From contig NC_079163.1 in NCBI RefSeq assembly GCF_947563725.1, positions 54,758,922 through 54,822,921 on the forward strand: 64,000 nt of DNA. The letters are read 5' to 3'. Under the pieces are notes generated by a model. It had not been told where the DNA came from. It searched no databases and worked only from the letters and a program-made list of their open reading frames with translations. Below, piece after piece: positions 8,210 to 58,774 of the stretch; positions within the stretch are counted from its first letter, which is position 1, and every line of letters begins with the position of its first letter. The position numbers and the translations under genes were made by a program. Source of the stretch: Argiope bruennichi (Eukaryota).

Positions 8210-10260
8210 AGCTTCGAGAACCTATTCAAAATATCATAACAAACTTTCCTTCTTTATCCCCCTCCCTCCTCAGGGTTCAACGTCTATAGATAAGTACGGA
8301 TGTCCCATTACCAAGGGATCTTTACTCCCATCAAATTTAACCCTCCCCGATACATTCTACTTTTTACTGAGTTTTTTCTATCCCTAGAAGGCACGATGGG
8401 GAGTTTTCCGTGAGAAGCTGTTGCCAATCCGTTTGCTTATTGCTTCTCATGGACAGCCAAAAACCCATATGCTGGCCATGCATGCCAACTTTTTAGATTG
8501 TGGTGCATTGTTAGTCCCTGCTTTATCAATTTGACCGGTATCCTAATTACTTGGTTAGTCTGCTAGGAATCGAGCGAAAGTGTTATTTTCTGGGGCTGAA
8601 GAGTGGTCAAAATTCCTGGAGATGACTCTCAGCGTACAGACTCCATCTAGCACTATGACAAGCGACACGATTGGAGACGTCTACTCCATGGCTCCATGGT
8701 AGGCTGCGCCGTAGGGGCCCAAATTTTTATCTGTCACGTAAGGGTTTTTCTTCTTCCGACGCTGAACCATTCTCCTATTCTACTAGTTTTATTATTCCTT
8801 GGGTTACTAACGGAAAGCACTCTGAAATATCTCTTCTTGCAGTTGAAAAAGAATTGAATGGTATTAGTGGTAATCCTAAATTAGTTAAAAACCTTCGATC
8901 GGGAGATTTACAAACTGAAACAAATTCTCTATTCAAACTACATCCTTTCTGCAAGCAAAATCTTTTTTAAACCATCCCGTTTCTGTAACACTTCACTCAA
9001 CATTAATTTCTGTAGTGGTGTTGTATCTGAAAAGGAAATTCCTGATAATTTTGCCAATCAAGGTGTTATTGCTGTGAAATGTATACTTATATATATATAA
9101 AAAAAGTAAATACTCTTGTTGACACCAATAGTATAATATTAATATTTAATACAAAAAAAAGTCCCGTCCAGCATGAAAGCAAACTGTTAAAGCACGCCTT
9201 CACATATCAAATCCCATTAAGTGGTATAAATGTCAACATTTCGGTCATTCCAAAACTGTTTGTAGATGAACACGAATCTATTCTAGATATGCGATTGCCG
9301 GTCATATTGCAAATGAATGTACGCTAGATGCTTTTTTGTGTAAACAGAAAACGGCCACATTAATCCGATCACTAGACTCTTTCTCTCAATGGGAATTACA
9401 GAAAAATGTACAGGACCTTACGATAAAGAAAAACATATATTACCAAGCTAAAAAAAACTATTGATTCTCGAACAAAAACCCATCTTCTTAAAAGTAATGC
9501 AATAAAATCAGCAAATTTGCAAAGAATAATGACTGAGAAAATGTTACAATAATTGTTTGCCAGTCAATTGACTAAATTAAAACCTATTGCTGTTAAAAAT
9601 TCCCCCATTAAAAGCGCTCTAACATGCACTGAAATTGCGAAATCGCCAGCAAAACATAAAGTTGAAAAGCAAAAAGACAACAAAAACGCCAACCAAGTGA
9701 AGAGTCCAAAGCAACAATAGCTGCTATATATGCTCGAATTTTTGCGGAGCGTAGAACCCAAACTTTGTCAAATCTATCTGTAACACAGGAAGATTTATAA
9801 AAAGAAACAAAATATCTAGACGACTCTGACACTGATCTTATTTTTAATTTTATCCATCTGACGTCGAAATGTCCCTAAGCGACTCCGATGAATCGACAAC
9901 TTCTTAAGAAAAAGGCATAATGTTTTTTTTTTTTCCAATTCTGGCGCTTTGTTTTCAATTTCTTGGTATTGTCGTGGGTTAAAAAATAAGATTTCTGATT
10001 TGACAGACTTCATCAATGTTTAAGCACCAGTTTGTATCGCATTACAAGAAGTTCGTTTAAAAGCAGGCGACGATATTCATACAGCAAGTAACCATATCTT
10101 ACAAAATGATATCAATGATAGAGCTTCAGGTGGAATGACACTGTTAGTCACTAACGATCTTCCATTTAATTTAAATACTAATTTTCAGGCTATTGCTATA
10201 CGAATACATATGAAATCCTTGATAACAATCTGCAGTTTATATTTACCTTCCAATGAATAT
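8210..10260 (+). mobile_element. 5' part of a non-LTR (LINE) retrotransposon: a GC-richer 5' region, an ORF1 with a pre-C2HC-like motif (KNLRSGDLQTET) and degenerate CCHC knuckles (…AIAGHIANEC…), and the start of the ORF2 APE endonuclease (WYCRGLKNKISDLTDFIN..VCIALQEVRLK). It is cut at 10260 by the LTR-RT insertion.
   Basis: These are three-frame translations of 8671-9330 and 9960-10258. ORF 8671..8970 is in the track. Confidence 0.55.
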
Positions 10261-10675
10261 TATCGCAAAAAGAAAATCTACACATAGTCAGCGTGGCTCA
10301 GAGGTAAAGTACGCGCTTGCAACACACGAAGTCAAGGGTTGTAATCCCATCTGAGTCACATTAAGTTAAAGGGTGAACTTTAATTTGAATTTCGTATTAT
10401 TCATTTGTTAATGTTCTAGAACTTGCTATAACCTTCTTTAAACTTCTAGATTATTCTGTAAAGGTATAAATTCTGAGTTCCATAAGCAATGGAATCAATT
10501 CTTAGCCTGCATGTTACGAGTTGCTAAAAACTAATAAAATTGATATTGTGTTACTTTGTGACTTATTATTTTTTGCATCTTCGTGACAAGTTTGGTGGAG
10601 GATAAAACCCTTTAACCGTAGATTCCGGTGATAGTACTCGTTTAAGCCGTCGTTTAAGAGGATTACCACCTGAAT

Positions 10676-11660
10676 TTGGACTATATTTTCCAGAATCAAG
10701 AAAAAGAGCAAAAATGCCCGATGAACGGTACGCAAACGCAACCAACGGTAGTTATGCCCGTGTACCAACATCTAAGGAGCCCATCAATATTTCGGGAAGA
10801 ATCTGGAGAATATCCTAGCAAATGGCTCAAAGAGTACGATCGAGTGGCTAAATTTAACAAATGGGACGAATTGATATGTTTAGCAATTGTTTATTCCTTC
10901 CTCGACGGCACAGAAAAGCAGTGATTTGTTAACCATGAGGATGCCTTGAATTCTTAGGAAACATTTAAAACTGGACTTGCCCAACTTTTAGGTGATCAGC
11001 AGAAATATAAGAAGCCGAGGAACATAAATATCGAGCTCAACGCGTGGGTGAGAGTACGCAGTTCTACATCCAAAGCGTCTTAGGATTTTGCCAAGAGGTA
11101 AACCCCTTGATGCCAGAGAATGAAAAAGTATCACACCTGATGAAAGGAGTGACTGAAGATATCTATCAGGCATTATCAGCAAGAGAGATCACCACGAAAG
11201 CCAATTTTATAAAATGGTGCGACTAAATCGAGGATATGAAGCAAAAGAGGGTCGGAAGACGAAAATTCGAAAGACTTCTCAAGTGGTACCAATGGCCGAT
11301 ATGGACGAAGAACCCGACCTAGTATCCCTAATACGCAGGATTGTGCAGGAAGAAGTCCAGCGGATGATTAGACCAAAATAGGAACTTTCAGATGTACATC
11401 CACAACCATTGGAAGAGATAGTCCAAGAGGAAGTTGAAAAAGTTCTGGCGTCTGTTTCTGCAAGAACAACGGAACGCCGCCAACGCACCTGCCGAACTTA
11501 CGCTGCTATAGCGCAGAATCCTCGGTCCATTCCATTGACAGAACCTAGAAAAACAGACTTATGGAGAACGACTGACAGCAGATCAGTTTGCTTCCATTGT
11601 GGACGTTCAGTACATGTTGTACGTTATTGCAGGGAAAGAAGAGCTATTTTCAATGACTAA
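10676..11660 (+). pseudogene. LTR-RT gag region with a CCHC zinc knuckle (CFHCGRSVHVVRYC), fragmented across frames.
   Basis: ORFs 10676..10924, 11044..11226 and 11409..11660 are capsid-like (…WLKEYDRVAKFNKWDE…). A CX2CX4HX4C motif is present. Confidence 0.55.
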
Positions 11661-11916
11661 AGAGCCCGCAGACAGAATCTCACAGAATTCAATGATTATG
11701 GAACCCGCCGACAGAATCCCACAGAATTTCACCCAAGTAACGAAGAGGATTACCGACGTCAATCCTCACCCAGTTCATCTCGAGGTTGATCTCCAACACA
11801 TCGCCTTATCGCCGATTCAGTCAATCTCCTAGTCGTAGAAAAGAGGAAAACTAAGCGAGGCGATCTTCCTGGGAGGTGAGGCCGCATACGATGAAAATCC
11901 TCCATCTGCCACCAAG

Positions 11917-14525
11917 ATGTCTGGAAACCAAATCGACGTAATGATAGATAACAAGTCGATACGTACTCTTGTGGGTTCTAGGGCATCTTTCGCAGGCATT
12001 TCAAATAAGTATCGCCAACATTTAATGAAAATTATGTTCTCTGATGACAAAAATGTCGTTCTTAAAGTCACCAATGAAAGTTTTGTATGGCCAATGGGTA
12101 AATGCATCCTACGAATTGCCATAAACAACCGAAAATTACCGTTCGAATTTGTAGTTTTGCAGCATTGCAGCCATGACGTTATACTTGGATGGGACTTTCT
12201 AGAAGCCTCTCAAGTAGTCATAGACTATGGTCGGAGTGAGCTGTTTTTTGAAGACGTCTGTCAAGAACACTCAGTGCCGGACACTTGGAAGTTGTATGCT
12301 ATAAAAGGCTGTACTCTGGCTCTACCGTCTTTAACTAGAGTATCAGTATTGGGAGCAGATATTGGTAAGGACTCCAACATACTTGTAGAAGGCAACAGAA
12401 ATTTACTATTCGCAAAGAATACTGCCGTACCTACTACAATCATCTCTTACCATAATAATAGAGGAGAAATCTGGGTCGCCAATACTCATCTTGGAAAACA
12501 GATTATCCCTAAAGGAATGTGCATCAGTCATGCTTAGCATCTAGATGAAAGCAATTTATGCGCAATAACGGATGAATAAGATGGAACCTAACGGAAACCG
12601 AAAAGCGCATAATTCATGAAGAAGTGGGGAAAATGCTTGAGAAAGGTATAGTACAACCATCTGAAAGTCGATGGTCAGCTCCGGTAGTTCTTGTGAAGAA
12701 AAGAGACGACAAATGGCGTTTTTGAGTAGATTATCGTCTATTGAATAAGATCACTAAGAAAGAGGTTTATCCTCTACCTCGGATTGATGATACACTTGAC
12801 TGTCTAAAAGGAGTAAAGTTCTTTTCTTCCAAGGATTTATGATCTGTTTACTGGCCTCAATCAAAAGAAGTGTTTTTTCGGTGCTCGAGAAGTTAGAGTA
12901 CTAGGCCATCTTGTATCCAAAGAAGGAGTCCTGACCGGATCCCGAAAAATTGAGAGTCGTAAGCAATTTTTCAGTTCCGAAAAACGTACATGACGTAAGA
13001 AGCTTTCTGCGTCTCTGTTTTCATACTTCCGAAGATTTATTAAAAGATTTTGTTATCAGGCTGCATCATTGCAACTTCTGTTAAAAGGTAGCACGAAATT
13101 TAAGTGGGGTTCTCAAGAAATGGAAGCGTTTAATGATCTGAAGAAAGCACTTACTTCTGATCCAGTACTAGGAATATACGATGAAAATGCTCCTACGAAA
13201 ATTCATACGGATTCTAGCGGCTACGGCATCGGAACAGTTCTGGTTAAGATCAAGATGAAGTCGAAAAAGTCATAGTATACGCGTCCAGAACCTTGACGAA
13301 AGCAGAAAAAAATTACTCTACCACTGAAATAGAATGTGTTGCCGTGGTATGGGCTATCAACAAATTTCGGCCATATCTTTTATGGAGGCACTTCACTGTT
13401 GTTACAGATCATCATTCACTCTGCTGGCTCATGAGTCTCAAGGATCCTTCATGACGACTCGCCAGGTGGGCACTTCGACTTCAAGAACATGACTTTTCTA
13501 TAACGTACAAAACCGGTAGGAAACATAAGGACGCTGAAACACTCTCTAGAAATCCAGTTAAAGAAGAAACTTCTATATCAGAGGAATTTATTGCGGTCGC
13601 TACTGATATGAACTTAGCCATCGAACAGAAAAAAGATCTAGATCTCGCAAAAATTATTCTTTCTCAGATCACCTCATTTACTATCAAGAAAGAATTTGAA
13701 GCAATTGACGTAATTTTATACAAAAAGAATTTTGATCCGGCAGGAAAAAAATGGTTACCATTCATTCCCAGACATCTACGTACGGACATTTTGAGATATG
13801 ACGCTTCTACTGCTGGGCATCTTGGTTTCGCAAAAACATATGACAGAATCCGAAAAAGATTTTGCTGGTCAAGGAAGTACCATAACATCATTCGATATGT
13901 AACACATTGCCGTGAGTGTCAACGAAGAAAATCTGTTCCTCAACGACCTCCAGGACGCTTGGTTTCCATCCTACCAGCTATGGCATCCTTTCATCGCATT
14001 TCAATCAATATTCTTGGACGATTTCCAAAAACTACCAGTAGAAACAAATGGGTCATCGTCTGTACAGATTATCTGACGCGTTATGCAGTGAAAAAGTCGT
14101 TGCCAACAGCTGAAGCCCCTGAAGTGGATAAGTTTTTGCTTGAAGAAGTTTTATTGAAAACATGGAACTCCTCGAGTAATTATCACTGCCCGTGGGACGG
14201 TCTTCCAGTCGAAACTAGTTTCATCCCTCGTCGAACTGTGTAACATAAGCCATCGCAAGACGACAGTATATCACCCACAGACAAATGGATTGACGGAGCG
14301 CTTTAATAAAACTTAGCTGATATGTTATCCATGTATGTTGATACAGAACATAAAAATTGGGATGAAATCTTACCATTTGTAACGTTTGCGTATAATACTG
14401 CCAAGCAAGAAATCACTGGTTTCACACATTTCTATTTATTGTATGGACAAGAAGCGGAGACAACGCTAGACACAATGTTACCATTCTGTCCTGATGACGT
14501 GGATGACAGTTATATTCAAGGATGA
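11917..14525 (+). pseudogene. LTR-RT pol. It comprises a retropepsin-like region (ends DVILGWDFL), a stop-riddled and shortened RT (…[45 protein letters not shown]…), RNase H ([30 protein letters not shown]…) and an integrase with an HHCC finger and DDE core (ORFs 13608..14243 and 14322..14525).
   Basis: Translation in three frames recovers the canonical gypsy RT, RNase H and IN motifs, with multiple stops and frameshifts. The RT segment is shorter than in intact elements, which suggests an internal deletion. Confidence 0.65.
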
Positions 14526-53685: not shown

Positions 53686-56295
53686 ATGCTTTTCTTTCAG
53701 ATGAAATTCTTTGATAAGCTCTGCCTTTTACTTTTCCTCACAAATGTGGACTCCCGACTGAAGGAGCAACATCGGCCATGCTCATTCAATCCTTTATGCA
53801 CATGCTCCAATGGAGGTCCAGATTTAGGTTCCGTATGCTGCCATAACATGCCATTAATGACTGTTCCATCTCAAATCAATAATTCTGCAATTTACATCAT
53901 GAGTCTTAAGGATAACAAATTGCGTTATCTAGAAGATAATAGTTTAAATGGAACTGGGCTCTGGAAACTTCAGATTAACAACAATCTGCTCACGGATTTA
54001 CCGCCCAACGCTTTAGCGGGACTCGAGAAAACATTATCGATTCTAGATTTGAGAAACAATAACTTAATACGAATACCAAAAGAAGCAATACAGAACTTAG
54101 AGAAACTAAGTAATTTGAATTTGGCTGATAACAAAATTGCCTTCTTACAAACAGATGATTTTCGCAATTTGGGTACTAGTTTAAAAGTTTTAGATTTATC
54201 TGAAAACGCTCTAATGCAAGTTCAAAATGACGCATTTCGTAATATGGTATCTTTAGAACTTTTGAATCTTGCACATAACTCCATAATTTCAATTGATGAT
54301 ATAACGTTTCATGGAGGGTTGAATAATTTAAAGCATATAAATCTTATGGGTAATCAGCTTCAGCAAATACCACTGAATGCTCTGGCTAGTTTTAAAAATA
54401 TTAAAACCGTAAACTTGAATGAAAATCTGATTTCCACTATATCCGAAGGAAGGGAAATAAGAAACCGCATCTATTTAGATGAACTGCATCTTGAACACAA
54501 TCTTATAGAAGAATTGACAGCAGAAAGCTTCAGACTTTTTAATCAAGTAAACCGTATCTTTTTGAAGGGCAATCCAATTACAACAATTAATGACACTTTT
54601 CTGACAGCCAATACAACTGAAATTTATATGCCTCATTGTTCGATATCAGAAATAACAAAAAATGCATTTTTTAGTTCAACACATTCATTGCAAGTTTTAG
54701 ACCTTAGTTATAATAAAATAAAAGAATTTCCCTTTTTACCACTGACAAAGTTAAACAAATTATCACTTTCTGGAAATTCTCTAAAAGAAGTTACGCCGGA
54801 AGATATTAAGTATTGTGGGAATCCATTGAAATATCTAGATATTTCTGGATTAAAGATGAATGGGTTGTCGCAAGAAAGCATGAAATATTTACCAAACATA
54901 AGAGAGTTATCACTCAATAAACCAACGCCAGTTATCAATACAGAATACTTACAAGACATTGGACCTTCAATGGAAAAACTATCTTTGACAAGAAGTTCAA
55001 TCAAAGTAATTGAAAATGGAGCATTTCACAGACTAAGCGGATTAAAAACATTAGATCTATCCCATAATGTCATATCAAAAATCGGAAATACCACTTTCAG
55101 GGATGTAAAGCATTCATTAGAAAAACTTGTTTTGCATAATGCTTTAAAATTAACATTATTCCCATATAAAGTCTTAAATTCTCTATCAAAGTTGGAATAT
55201 TTAGATACGAGTAGCAATCGTATCCAATATTTAACACAGAATTCTTTTTCGTCATTTCAAAACTTGAGATATTTAAATTTAAATCATAATGAACTGAAAA
55301 ATCTAGATCCGAATATAGTAAATGATATGCATAATCCAAACCTCTCATACCTGAAAGTAGCATTTAACAAAATTAGAGAACTAAAAACCCACATATTTCG
55401 AAATTTGCGAAATCTGATTTATTTGCAACTAAATGATAATTTGATTGACAACATACACAAATCTGCCTTTCTTGATTTAGACTCGGTAATGATTATTCGT
55501 CTAGAAGGGAATTTGATCAAAACCATTGATAATGAAGCATTCCAAAATTTGCCCAATATTCAGTTAATAAATTTGGGATATAATCAGCTATCTTCTTTCA
55601 ATTTGGAAGCTTTTAACCAGGTAGGAAGATTATCAACTTTAAGGATAGATGTAGATCACAACAACATTCAGAATTTAACAGGAAATTATACGGTTATTCA
55701 TACTTCAAGCAACATAAAGTATCTCAATTTTAGCTATAACAATATATCCTATTTGGACACCAACTACTTAGATCCAATAAGGCTGTCACTTACAGTCTTA
55801 GACTTAAGCCATAATAAATTGGTAAACTTAACTTCCCAGGCATTTACAAATCTGGCTCATCTGCAGACCCTAATACTTTCAAATAACGAGATTGAAAGCA
55901 TAGAAGAAGAAGAATTTAAAGGTCTCCGATCTATACAAATATTAGATTTATCAAAAAATAACTTAAATACTCTACCAGAAAATTTATTTGAAAGACAAAA
56001 GCAATTAAGAATACTTTCATTGGCATACAATGAGATGGAACAGATACCTGCAGATATTTTTAAAAATACTATAATCGAGCAACTAGATTTATCATTTAAT
56101 GACTTGCAAGAATTTCCAGAAGATTCAACATTTCATATCAAAGATACTCTGCAGTTAATCGACTTAACTGGAAATGCAATAGAATTCCTTAATTTCAGCA
56201 ATATAGCATCATTGCCAAATTTACGGTATCTGGACCTTTCCCGAAACACACTAACTCTACTTAGTTCAACAGAAGAAATGCAACTACCACATCTA
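53686..56295 (+). CDS. chp: Chaoptin-like LRR protein, exon 1 (870 codons, phase 0-0). It encodes a signal peptide, an LRRNT cysteine cluster (PCSFNPLCTCS...DLGSVCCHN) and about 30 LRRs. A GTAAGT donor lies at 56296.
   Basis: The track shows a continuous 892-aa ORF. The LRR consensus LxxLxLxxNxL repeats throughout. Motif blocks match Drosophila chaoptin in order: PC.FN.CTCS..DLG.V.C.N.P, LHLEHNLIEEL...VNRIFLKGNPI and GYNQLSSFNLEAFNQVGRLSTLRIDVDHNNIQNL. The ORF tail after 56295 (VSIINFIFK...) is intron read-through. TTTCTTTCAG immediately precedes the second ATG at 53701, so the true start may be 53701 with a 5'UTR intron upstream. Confidence 0.8.
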
Positions 56296-56734
56296 GTAAG
56301 TATAATTAATTTCATTTTTAAGACGATAAAAAGTCTTTCAAATAATATGTGCAAAACTTTTTAAAAAACTGAACTTTCAAGGAAAAACTGTTGCACTATA
56401 TTGAATTTTGCAAAACAAAATTCAAGTATAAAACTCACAGAAAATAAAAACTATAGCATTAATAAACATAAAATAGTTAATAGTTTATTTTCCAAACATG
56501 ATTCAGACTTTTAGATGTTTTATTGTCTCTTGATCGCAATACATATGCTTAGTTTTACTTAAAAGTTTGTCTCCAGACAACATCGTCAATTTCGTTTCAT
56601 TAACGGGAAATTTTGCTCTCTTTTCTCATCAATAAAAAGAAAATATTCAAATTTTAAAAAAATGTGTAGAAAAAAGATGCTACTATTCAAATTTGTGACA
56701 TAGATCTGAAATATATTCTTATTTTCACTTTCAG

Positions 56735-57529
56735 ATGACCCTGGATTTATCTCACAACATAATAAAAGAATTTCCAGCATGGATGAGTAACCAATTACCC
56801 TCTAGTCTTGAGGAACTCAATTTAGCGAATACAAGTTTGAAAGAAATTCCAGTGCTGACATCGTCGTGTAACGTTTTAGTATTGAACCTGAGTTCCAATA
56901 ATATACAAACGGTGGAACACGAGACATGGGAACAACTAAAGAAAATCCAAATTTTGGACTTATCTAATAATCTGTTGATAAATACATACAACAACGTATG
57001 GTCAAACCTGCAGTATTTAAAAAGCTTGTATTTGCAAAAGAATCCAATACAAAAATTATCAAACAATAGCTTCACGAATATGGAAAGGTTGCAGGAGCTA
57101 TTTATAAAAAATTTGAAATTGCAAGAAATCGATCAAGATACGTTCCATACACTGACAGCATTGAAAAAGATAGAACTAGATACATACACAGGAAGGAGTA
57201 CCAATGTATCTCAACTGTTTCATGGTAACCAAGGAATTCATGAAATACATTTGCATGTACAAGAGAATGGACTGGATGGGATTTTCAACGGAGATCTTCC
57301 TAAATCATTAAAATCTATCATTCTGGAAGGTGATAATTTAAAATACTTCGACGAGTCAGTCTTTTCGAGCATTCGAAGTCATACTCTTAACCTGAATATT
57401 CGAAACTCAAACATCACAAAATTTCCACAGAAGGTTTTTGAAAATATGAAAGAAACAAAAAATTTCACAGCAGCATTTATAAACAACAAGTTGCATACGC
57501 TTGAAAAGCTATACACAACAGAGGGAGAG
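56735..57529 (+). CDS. chp: Chaoptin-like LRR protein, exon 2 (265 codons, phase 0-0). The acceptor is TTTTCACTTTCAG|ATG and the donor is GAG|GTAATG.
   Basis: A 267-aa ORF carries more LRRs (LDLSHNIIKEFP, LDLSNNLL...). It joins exon 1 in phase (…MQLPHL|MTLDLSHN…). The splice consensus is present at both ends. Confidence 0.75.
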
Positions 57530-58774
57530 GTAATGTAGTCTTTTTTAATGCAAATAGTTTGATATATTTTTAAACTTTCAAATGTGTAATACAAATAAAT
57601 CACCAAATTTAGATACACGGAATAATAATACAAAAAAATCATTAGTATTTTAGGAAATAAACGCTTTTTTTACACATTACTGAAATAATATTTTACATTT
57701 ATTTTGCTTTAATAATATTTCGTAATTTTAAATAATTTTGCATAGTAATGTTAAGGGTCCTTTTTTAGCATATCAATAGCTGTTTCAATCCAATAATTTG
57801 ACTGCGCGCCCTGAAATTGTACAAGATACTTTTTCAAATGAAAATGATTTTTTTTCTTTTGTTTTGCAGGTTAATTTCATTTTTATAACATCCCCAATTA
57901 AAATAATCAAACAAAGGCTAAAAGAACTGCTTATTCGAAACTGAATATGAGTTCCGGAAAAACAGTAACCAGGATAAGGTTAAGCTCTGATGGGCCTCTT
58001 AGGCAATGCAAGTTTCGAGGGTCATTTTCCTCCTCTCAAACTTCCGAAACCAGATATATTTTATAGATTTTATCTCTATATAAACCAGTTTTTACGAGAC
58101 ACATTTTGCAGTAAATTGAAATAGAACAATTAATTGCAAGTTATCTTAGAAATATTTGTTTCAGTATCTCGATATATAAAAATTTAAAAGTAATTTTATA
58201 AACAAAGTGATAAAAATTTTCAAAACTTTTTAAACGCATTTTAAATACCAAAATACAAAATTTGTAAGGATTGTTTATTGACTTGTGAGCCAGTCAACTA
58301 ATTGATTTGCAAGTGAATTTGAAAATATGGAGAAGAAACCATAACAATGTTCTGAAATTTGTTTGAGTTTATGATCTTTGAATCGAATGAAAACACATAA
58401 TTGGATAACCATGAAAATACCACTATAAAATATCGGGTCTTCCAAAGTTATGAGGCCCCTAGGCAGTTGCTTATATTGCATATTTAATATATATATATAT
58501 ACTTCCTAACTTCCAAAACCAGATTTTTTTTGCCATTGATGTTAATCTTTTTATTTCTATATAAGCAGTTTTAAATAGCAAATGTGACAAACTGAAAAAC
58601 TAAATAATTTAATTTCAGTCATTTTTCAGAAAACTAGTTTTTTATTATACTAAAGTTATATGCAGCCTTCAAACATTATATCATTAAACATGATAGTTTT
58701 CTGCCAATGAAAAACTTGTCATATTGTTTTTATTAAATTTACTTTTTTTTTTTTTTTTTTTTTTTTGCAAACAG

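Follow-up and report, generated by a model that had tools for sequence, protein, structure and literature searches.

A tRNA-derived module with conserved A and B boxes, probably a Pol III promoter unit, in the LTRs of coding Ty3/gypsy elements from orb-weaving spiders

A 72-nt tRNA-like stretch present in both LTRs of a degenerate Ty3/gypsy retrotransposon is probably a decayed tRNA-derived Pol III promoter unit, built into the U3 of a clade of orb-weaver Ty3/gypsy elements that prime on tRNA-Ala. The module is certainly tRNA-derived, yet it is no credible tRNA gene. Comparison with related elements shows that an entire clade of coding Ty3/gypsy elements has inherited it with its boxes conserved. 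This main point, which the original prediction missed, is visible only through the relatives. The copy in the window (the whole 64-kb stretch of DNA that was analysed) is itself an ordinary fossil.

The element occupies positions 10261-15333 of the window (5073 bp, ~5.07 kb) and was inserted into the endonuclease ORF of a LINE. When its flanks are joined across the element, a single Exo_endo_phos_2 (LINE endonuclease) match spans the junction, and the element boundaries are confirmed by this restoration of the host domain. The two LTRs, all features here being on the + strand, are direct repeats at 10261-10588 (5' LTR, 328 nt, TATCGC...GTGACA) and 14996-15333 (3' LTR, 338 nt, TGTCGC...GTGACA), with 86.6% identity, one 10-bp indel and the inverted ends T(G/A)TC...GACA. 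A target-site duplication, ATAT, encloses them, read directly at 10257-10260 and again, as the same 4 nt, after the 3' LTR at 15334-15337. The element shows the TG..CA-type inverted LTR ends and short target-site duplication of Ty3/gypsy elements; its 5' LTR is followed by a PBS and its 3' LTR preceded by a PPT, and its domains are ordered gag-PR-RT-RNH-IN.

The PBS remnant, TGGTGGAGGAT (10593-10603), starts four bases past the 5' LTR end and is complementary to the 3' end of tRNA-Ala, being decayed after 9-11 nt. It is followed by a gag remnant with a CCHC knuckle (10676-11660, from ORFs and frame translations), broken by stops and frameshifts, and by an aspartic protease ORF (11917-12537; Pfam RVP_2, 22.7 bits). 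Next comes an RT remnant (12590-13235) whose catalytic core is apparently deleted, the frame translations passing from N-terminal motifs directly to the apparent RT C-terminal/connection region, and then a frameshifted RNase H and integrase region (13236-14900; Pfam Integrase_H2C2, 57 bits). The polypurine tract AAGAGGGCAGTAA (14983-14995), read directly, aligns with the PPTs of related elements, GAGGGGAGCAA, AAGGGAGGAGAAA and AAGGAGGGAGAAA, which immediately precede their 3' LTRs. By motif position, TATA boxes (TATAAA) lie at 10465-10470 in the 5' LTR and at 15210-15215 in the 3' LTR, with AATAAA signals at 10533-10538 and 15278-15283, respectively; the GTATAAA and ATAAA of the window LTR align with the same motifs in the Trichonephila clavipes LTR. 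The pol remnant as a whole is 76% identical (E 5e-212) to Ty3/gypsy pol proteins of T. clavipes.

With its LTRs 13% diverged, its ORFs broken and the RT core apparently deleted, the window element is dead. Its module is likewise a fossil, as the B box of the 5' copy is mutated, there is no terminator and nothing about it is functional in the window. Elsewhere in the window there is a chaoptin gene, with 79% identity to Nephila pilipes chaoptin. Together with the pol matches described below, this assigns the window to an araneoid spider, one without proteins in the collection searched.

Within each LTR, the module covers positions 26-97, in U3 and on the sense strand, which corresponds to 10286-10357 in the 5' LTR and 15021-15092 in the 3' LTR. 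The original prediction had each LTR begin with the module, at 10270-10345; this span lies ~15 nt too far to the left, as the window LTR starts with TGTCGCAAAAAG... and 25 nt precede the module in each LTR. The motifs that it had read in the letters are present as described, namely the A-box-like TGGCTCAGAGG (10294-10304 and 15029-15039), the anticodon-like loop CTTGCAAC and the T arm, or B box, which is intact in the 3' LTR (GGTTCGAATCC, 15072-15082) and mutated in the 5' LTR (GGTTGTAATCC, 10337-10347). The A and B boxes both fit the consensus and are 32 nt apart, the canonical spacing of Pol III type-2 promoters, in agreement with the earlier suggestion of a Pol III promoter module in U3. 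The module sequence is found twice on the + strand, exactly at 10286 and with two mismatches in the first 38 nt at 15021, whereas no match is expected by chance (100 shuffles), so that the presence of a tRNA-like module in both LTRs is confirmed. Nothing else in the 64-kb window resembles a tRNA as closely as this module, and no third copy of the LTR or of the module was found anywhere in it.

The likeness to tRNA is nevertheless that of a relic. ARAGORN with default settings finds no tRNA in the 64-kb window, and Rfam at gathering thresholds finds none either. At 95% thresholds, the sole ARAGORN match in the 64 kb is 15021-15092, called tRNA-Ala (TGC); at 80% thresholds the window yields 31 matches, which are noise, and it is only there that the 5' LTR module is called. 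A covariance-model check of both LTRs, as the original prediction had proposed, gives 18.2 bits (E 0.22) for the 5' LTR module and 15.3 bits for the 3' LTR module with the Rfam tRNA model RF00005 (small windows), both below its gathering score of 29 bits. Thus, the tRNA derivation holds and the tRNA gene does not, and a real tRNA gene in the window was rejected on the ARAGORN default result and these Rfam scores. Chance resemblance was also rejected, given the absence of expected matches, the sole match at 95% thresholds and the absence of the box pattern described below from shuffled sequences.

The relaxed ARAGORN calls disagree between the two window copies, Ala (TGC) vs Cys (GCA), and the anticodon is indeed ambiguous, reading as Ala-UGC or Cys-GCA through a register shift of 1 nt. 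The modules of the two LTRs differ at 10/72 positions, the LTR as a whole at 13%, and many differences between the LTRs look like CpG decay. After the CpG repairs allowed by the LTR pair, the reconstructed ancestor of the window lineage falls just below the ARAGORN default. It passes this default as tRNA-Cys only with one extra, unsupported CpG repair, and therefore we assign no isotype to the ancestral window module.

The pol remnant matches >1000 Ty3/gypsy proteins, nearly all of them from orb-weaving spiders and mostly from T. clavipes, which also provides the best matches (76% identical). The relatives were sampled as the DNA around twelve related proteins plus one find of a pattern scan (LTR end + PBS), and five lineages were compared, hereafter W (window), T, A1, A2 and M. 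Lineage T includes six T. clavipes loci (L001-L005 and L012), with LTR pairs 99.4-100% identical and interrupted ORFs, and a deletion variant from T. inaurata (L007). Araneus ventricosus contributes both A1 (L008, its 3' LTR cut by the contig end) and A2 (L006, L009 and L011). Lineage M is represented by L078, from a JGI metagenome contig, with intact ORFs: a 410-aa gag ORF and a 1171-aa PR-RT-RNH-IN ORF without stop and with the full domain set. The relatives are 5.4-5.5 kb in size, their homologous gag matches Retrotrans_gag, and the Pol proteins of the lineages are about 60-76% identical to one another.

All sampled relatives have LTRs ending in CGTGACA and a PBS of the form TGGTGGAGGCGC(G/C)GGG, which reads TGGTGGAGGCGCGGGGTA in the intact ones. 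The PBS of L005 runs on into an antisense primer copy of 41 nt, reading ...TGCGAGAGGTACGGGGATCGATACCCCGCGCCTCCACCA, which we take to be an arthropod-type tRNA-Ala. Every insertion with readable flanks sits at ATAT, and none is beside tRNA genes. The W lineage was not found outside the window, as the sampled T. clavipes proteins, including the divergent-looking P0042 and P0109, all have a T-type LTR. The pattern scan of metagenomes returned ~120 stretches, nearly all GC-rich and presumably due to chance, among which only L078 is in the family; that of viral contigs returned one match, which is unrelated. Logan contigs of roughly 5.2-5.4 kb and relatives from pseudoscorpions were also noted.

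Across the five lineages, the invariant positions of the module are T.GC...G..GG.A and GTTC.A..CC, i.e. the A and B boxes. Invariant columns amount to 14/25 in the boxes and 5/50 elsewhere in the module (Fisher p = 3.6e-5), a contrast to which alignment anchoring could contribute in part, as could repeated replacement by other tRNA-like sequences, all tRNAs sharing these boxes. On average, pairwise identity reaches 0.75 within the boxes and 0.39 across the remainder of the module, and U3 outside the module is down to 33-53%. The longest identical run in the whole W vs T LTR comparison is the 13-nt GGGTTCGAATCCC, which exceeds both the TATA box and the LTR terminus. A search for the pattern A-box-N26-34-B-box gave 16 matches in 212 kb, 15 of which are LTR modules (the window 3' LTR module among them), and none in 200 shuffles.

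The cloverleaf, in contrast, is not kept. Pairing is found in 58.7% of the cells, a value reached by 48 of the 500 shuffles, and no excess covariation was detected. Only 6-11 of the 20 pairs of the M cloverleaf are kept in the other lineages, and the acceptor stem is absent from the lineage T module. A conserved cloverleaf, tested in two registers, is thus not supported. The relatives also score below the Rfam tRNA cutoff of 29 (24.6 bits for T, 17.1 for M, 12.2 for A1 and no match for A2), and M, called tRNA-Gly (TCC), is the sole lineage that passes the ARAGORN default. The isotype calls shift with register and lineage among Ala, Cys, Val, Arg and Gly. Together, these comparisons show that the promoter boxes have been conserved while the anticodon, the cloverleaf stems and U3 outside the module have decayed.

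The position of the module is also shared. In all five lineages, the tRNA-like stretch begins 17-27 nt into the LTR, and the LTR alignments are collinear, with module indels of only 1-3 nt. The M module, that of the least-diverged module lineage, is similar to the reconstructed W ancestor (z 9.7, 0/500 shuffles reaching the score), to A2 (z 6.6, 0/500), to A1 (z 4.7, 1/500) and to T (z 3.0, 5/500), and T and A1 are likewise similar to each other (z 8.4, 0/500). The similarity of the W module to T, A1 or A2 individually is not significant. Because M is significantly similar to all other lineages, a single acquisition is preferred over repeated capture, and the simplest reading is that the module was acquired once, before the five lineages split.

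Two elements bear on how strictly the module is required. The two LTRs of T. inaurata L007, 93% identical, have lost the same 62 nt, the B box included, and since one deletion is common to both, this element transposed without a B box. The module is thus dispensable for at least one round of transposition, and its role, whatever this may be, is not an essential one. The more distant L010, from an ENA assembly and with the same PBS and LTR end, has a 192-nt LTR without module; our distance trees are compatible both with L010 as an outgroup and with a secondary loss.

The original prediction also raised the possibility of a captured SINE or of the origin of a SINE family. No evidence for either was found. 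The module lacks a SINE body and tail and is not enclosed by a separate target-site duplication, and the window and ~148 kb of related spider loci contain no free copies of it. It resembles SINE2 elements, whose decayed tRNA head likewise keeps canonically spaced A and B boxes but not the cloverleaf, and differs from them in that it moves as part of the LTR and not by a LINE. Two free tRNA-SINEs were met by chance in T. clavipes, at L002:16491-16765 (with a 13-bp target duplication and a (CACT)n tail) and at L003:~12125. Their heads compare to the M module with z 1.5 and -0.1, and with about 4 at best to any LTR module. Kinship to free SINEs was therefore rejected for these two heads, whose similarity to the modules does not exceed what generic tRNA likeness would give.

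Regarding transcription, a TATA box is present in every lineage, ~120-145 nt downstream of the module, and an AATAAA/ATTAAA signal is found in most, although not all, related LTRs. The elements carry 26-36 sense-strand T4+ runs each, no fewer than expected. Given these undepleted T-runs, together with the TATA box and AATAAA signals downstream of the module, the genomic RNA very probably comes from Pol II. Past the module, lineages T and A2 have T4/T5 runs at 15-35 nt, whereas the U3 of W and of M contains no T4 run and hence no terminator. A defined short RNA is consequently not a constant feature of the family.

The A and B boxes of such promoters constitute the binding site of TFIIIC. In our view, U3 probably gained a Pol III promoter or TFIIIC-binding unit on a single occasion and has kept it since. 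To judge from their conservation, the boxes of active copies would bind TFIIIC and probably recruit Pol III. No working tRNA would be encoded. One outcome could be a short RNA from the LTR, some 100-115 nt long in lineages T and A2; another could be that the unit, with TFIIIC bound, acts as a boundary or enhancer through which the neighbouring Pol II promoter stays accessible, as tRNA genes, SINEs and B-box sites are known to do in other eukaryotes. We lean towards the latter, DNA-level role beside the Pol II promoter, because a short RNA with a terminator is not constant among the lineages.

The main alternative to a selected unit is that the module is a neutral passenger, i.e. a tRNA pseudogene or SINE head that landed once or several times in the U3 of a master copy and was then carried along, so that the apparent conservation of the boxes would reflect anchoring of the alignment and the universal tRNA consensus. 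The transposition of the L007 lineage without its B box, the L010 LTR without module and the unconserved cloverleaf and terminator would all be expected of such a passenger, as would the chance-level scores of W against T, A1 or A2 singly and the divergence of the window modules (10/72), which equals that of the whole LTR; the sampled lineages, moreover, are only five. Nevertheless, a passenger would hardly show box columns invariant so much more often than the rest in an otherwise eroded U3, nor its position and length kept in five lineages with such small indels, and the ties of M to all lineages point to one origin instead of repeated capture. We thus regard this explanation as rather unlikely, and prefer a retained Pol III promoter or TFIIIC-binding unit. 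A role as RNA is improbable. In the genomic RNA made by Pol II, U3 forms part of the 3' UTR; there the module, only 17-25 nt past the PPT, could be recognised as a structure by RNase P/Z, the CCA-adding enzyme or element proteins for 3'-end processing, stability or packaging, and the fold of lineage M, good enough for the ARAGORN default, and the near-threshold W ancestor agree with this idea. However, the lineages have not preserved the stems, nor do compensatory changes occur in them, lineage T has no acceptor stem, and the conserved part is a DNA promoter consensus rather than base pairing.

The two remaining explanations have even less in their favour. A Pol III promoter could make the retrotransposition template itself, with an R that begins where Pol III starts and ends at a terminator directly past the module, as proposed for Cassandra and Helenus (PMC10886601), and the T4/T5 runs past the module in T and A2 would define such an R. 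For elements of 5.1-5.5 kb this is very improbable: the undepleted T-runs argue against Pol III-driven genomic RNA, the Pol II signals (TATA box in every lineage, AATAAA/ATTAAA in most) are at their usual U3/R/U5 places, and M and W have no terminator past the module. It could still apply to undiscovered short deletion derivatives. Finally, we give almost no credence to a working tRNA gene (Ala-UGC or Cys-GCA) or to a copy of the primer tRNA left by read-through in plus-strand synthesis. The relaxed tRNA-Ala (TGC) call in elements that prime on tRNA-Ala, as well as the occurrence of primer read-through in the family (the 41-nt copy of L005), speak for the idea; yet no lineage has a module that reaches the Rfam gathering score, and the isotype calls are unstable. 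A read-through copy would be antisense and beside the PBS, as in L005, whereas the module is sense and in U3, and its T arm, GGGTTCGAATCCC, and 3' end differ from those of the L005 primer tRNA-Ala, GGGGATCGATACCCC...GCCTCCA. A primer tRNA-Ala copy by strong-stop read-through was therefore rejected on orientation, position and T arm.

A link to the Pol III/TFIIIC machinery is also found in Ty3 and in the DGLT-A/TRE elements of Dictyostelium, which integrate beside tRNA genes. The spider elements would share this link but have the tRNA-like unit inside the LTR, with their readable insertions at ATAT sites. Closer precedents exist in the miniature elements Helenus, Cassandra and Ajax, grouped as TRIMp3 by Kojima (2024; PMC10886601), all of which are non-coding and whose template RNA is thought to be made from a Pol III promoter. 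Helenus elements are 311-1263 bp long, non-coding and with tRNA-derived sequence in their LTRs, where box A (TRGC...GG) and box B (GGTTC) are kept, the tRNA is non-functional and isotype calls disagree, whereas the LTRs of Cassandra and Ajax contain 5S-derived sequence (PMC10886601). The original description of a Pol III module in an LTR as unusual is thus fair, with the qualification that precedents exist, tRNA-derived in Helenus and 5S-derived in Cassandra and Ajax (PMC10886601).

The window element matches Helenus in having tRNA-derived sequence with boxes A and B in both LTRs. Indeed, Helenus and the spider elements share this sequence in both LTRs, the kept boxes, a PBS and a PPT, and in animals Helenus further resembles them in its 4-bp target duplications and Gypsy-type partner. 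TRIMs, however, are about 0.3-1.3 kb and non-coding, while the window element has 5073 bp with remnants of gag, PR, RT, RNase H and IN; unlike Helenus, the spider elements are 5.1-5.5 kb gag-pol elements, one of them fully intact, with TATA/AATAAA Pol II signals of their own. The plant TRIM Cassandra and the nemertean TRIM Ajax likewise have a Pol III small-RNA gene module in both LTRs with long-conserved promoter elements, but this is a 5S-derived type 1 promoter in non-autonomous elements under 1 kb. In addition, the Pol III transcripts of Cassandra have been shown experimentally, whereas the spider modules are known from sequence.

According to Kojima, the autonomous partners of TRIMp3 necessarily rely on Pol II promoters, and long stretches of LTR sequence in common with TRIMp3 are improbable for them; arachnids are absent among the TRIMp3 hosts listed, and 'not a few' Repbase LTRs are said in passing, without description, to resemble tRNA (PMC10886601). 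In the literature searched, we found no autonomous or coding family of LTR retrotransposons described as carrying a conserved module of tRNA origin in its LTRs. The spider family is a useful case, and apparently one not described before, of coding elements with such a module, LTRs with small-RNA-gene promoters having been described so far only for the miniature, non-coding Cassandra, Helenus and Ajax. A coding family that keeps the boxes offers a route to the origin of these miniatures, through internal deletion of an element with a Pol III promoter in its LTR.

A broader proposal, which we consider possible but doubtful, is that this is an autonomous spider Ty3/gypsy clade with a dual-polymerase LTR, in which a selected TFIIIC/Pol III unit lies upstream of the Pol II promoter and from which deleted derivatives would be pre-adapted as Pol III-driven TRIMs. 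The unit would then serve the element as a chromatin boundary, an anti-silencing site or a source of small LTR RNA. If this were true, such autonomous elements would be the missing progenitors or partners of Helenus-type elements, instead of Helenus having arisen by SINE insertion into an existing TRIM. The family also provides a natural system for the effect of TFIIIC/Pol III recruitment on a retrotransposon transcribed by Pol II. In more practical terms, being abundant (>1000 pol matches), it will add pseudo-tRNA calls to spider annotations, one copy already passing the ARAGORN default.

The tRNA-like module carried by both LTRs of the window's element is partly deleted in one related element and absent from another. 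In the Trichonephila inaurata copy (L007), the two LTRs (L007:5021-5294 and 10123-10407) are 93% identical to each other and have in common a 62-nt deletion, by which the anticodon arm, the T arm and the B box have been removed. Since the deletion is found in both LTRs, an element lacking the B box must have transposed. In a more distant relative from an ENA assembly (L010), with Pol 57% identical, the LTR (L010:2428-2619) is 192 nt long and the module is absent from it; the tRNA-Ala primer-binding site (PBS) and the CTACGTGACA LTR end are the same as in the window's clade. The module-less LTR of this relative could represent either ancestral absence or loss. A further variant characterizes one T. 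clavipes subtype (L003:5205-5260 and L012:5026-5105), in which 12 nt of the module's 5' end (AAGTCCCGATAC) occur a second time, immediately preceding the module.

The stretch that separates the module from the TATA box carries TTCTAGAA-type palindromic motifs, which recur in all lineages (window 10414-10440 and 15145-15180, and the LTRs of L001 from T. clavipes, the metagenome contig L078 and L009 from Araneus ventricosus). The 8-nt run GTTCTAGA is identical between the window's lineage and that of T. clavipes, and the 10-bp indel that distinguishes the two LTRs of the window corresponds to one additional copy of the motif. This palindromic motif may be a transcription-factor site.

Free tRNA-derived SINEs were also found in T. 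clavipes. One of them (L002:16491-16765) carries a (CACT)n tail and is flanked by a target duplication of 13 bp (TTCCCAAGAGAAA); in the tRNA head of the other (L003:~12125-12200), the T arm is perfect. Sequence comparison revealed no specific relationship of either SINE to the LTR modules.

The LTR element of the window interrupts a non-LTR (LINE) retrotransposon, whose flanks lie at 9990-10260 and 15338-15560 and, once joined, give a single Exo_endo_phos_2 endonuclease match across the insertion point. The LTR ends are adjoined by ATAT on both sides (window 10257-10260 and 15334-15337). Wherever the flanks of an insertion can be read in this Ty3/gypsy clade (the window, L001, L003, L004, L005, L007 and L009), the same tetranucleotide adjoins the LTR ends, which suggests a strong preference of the clade for the palindromic target ATAT.

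Among the T. clavipes copies, L005 lacks the 5' UTR and the beginning of gag. Its PBS is extended by 41 nt that copy the primer tRNA-Ala in antisense (L005:5633-5673), and gag codons follow immediately. This junction looks as if plus-strand synthesis had read through into the primer and had then undergone an aberrant transfer. Despite nearly identical LTR pairs, the gag-pol ORFs of L001 to L005 are interrupted, which could be due to indel errors in the assembly or to recent mobilization in trans of defective copies.

Elsewhere in the window, a 258-aa ORF on the reverse strand (17711-18487) contains Sleeping Beauty-type and Tc3-type transposase HTH domains and is therefore a Tc1/mariner transposase fragment; an (AT)n run lies just upstream of it (~17170-17210). 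A leucine-rich-repeat gene on the forward strand (53686-57538) assigns the window to an araneoid spider by its similarity to chaoptin; it comprises two long ORFs of 892 and 267 aa, the first showing 79% identity with the chaoptin of Nephila pilipes and 65% with that of Stegodyphus.
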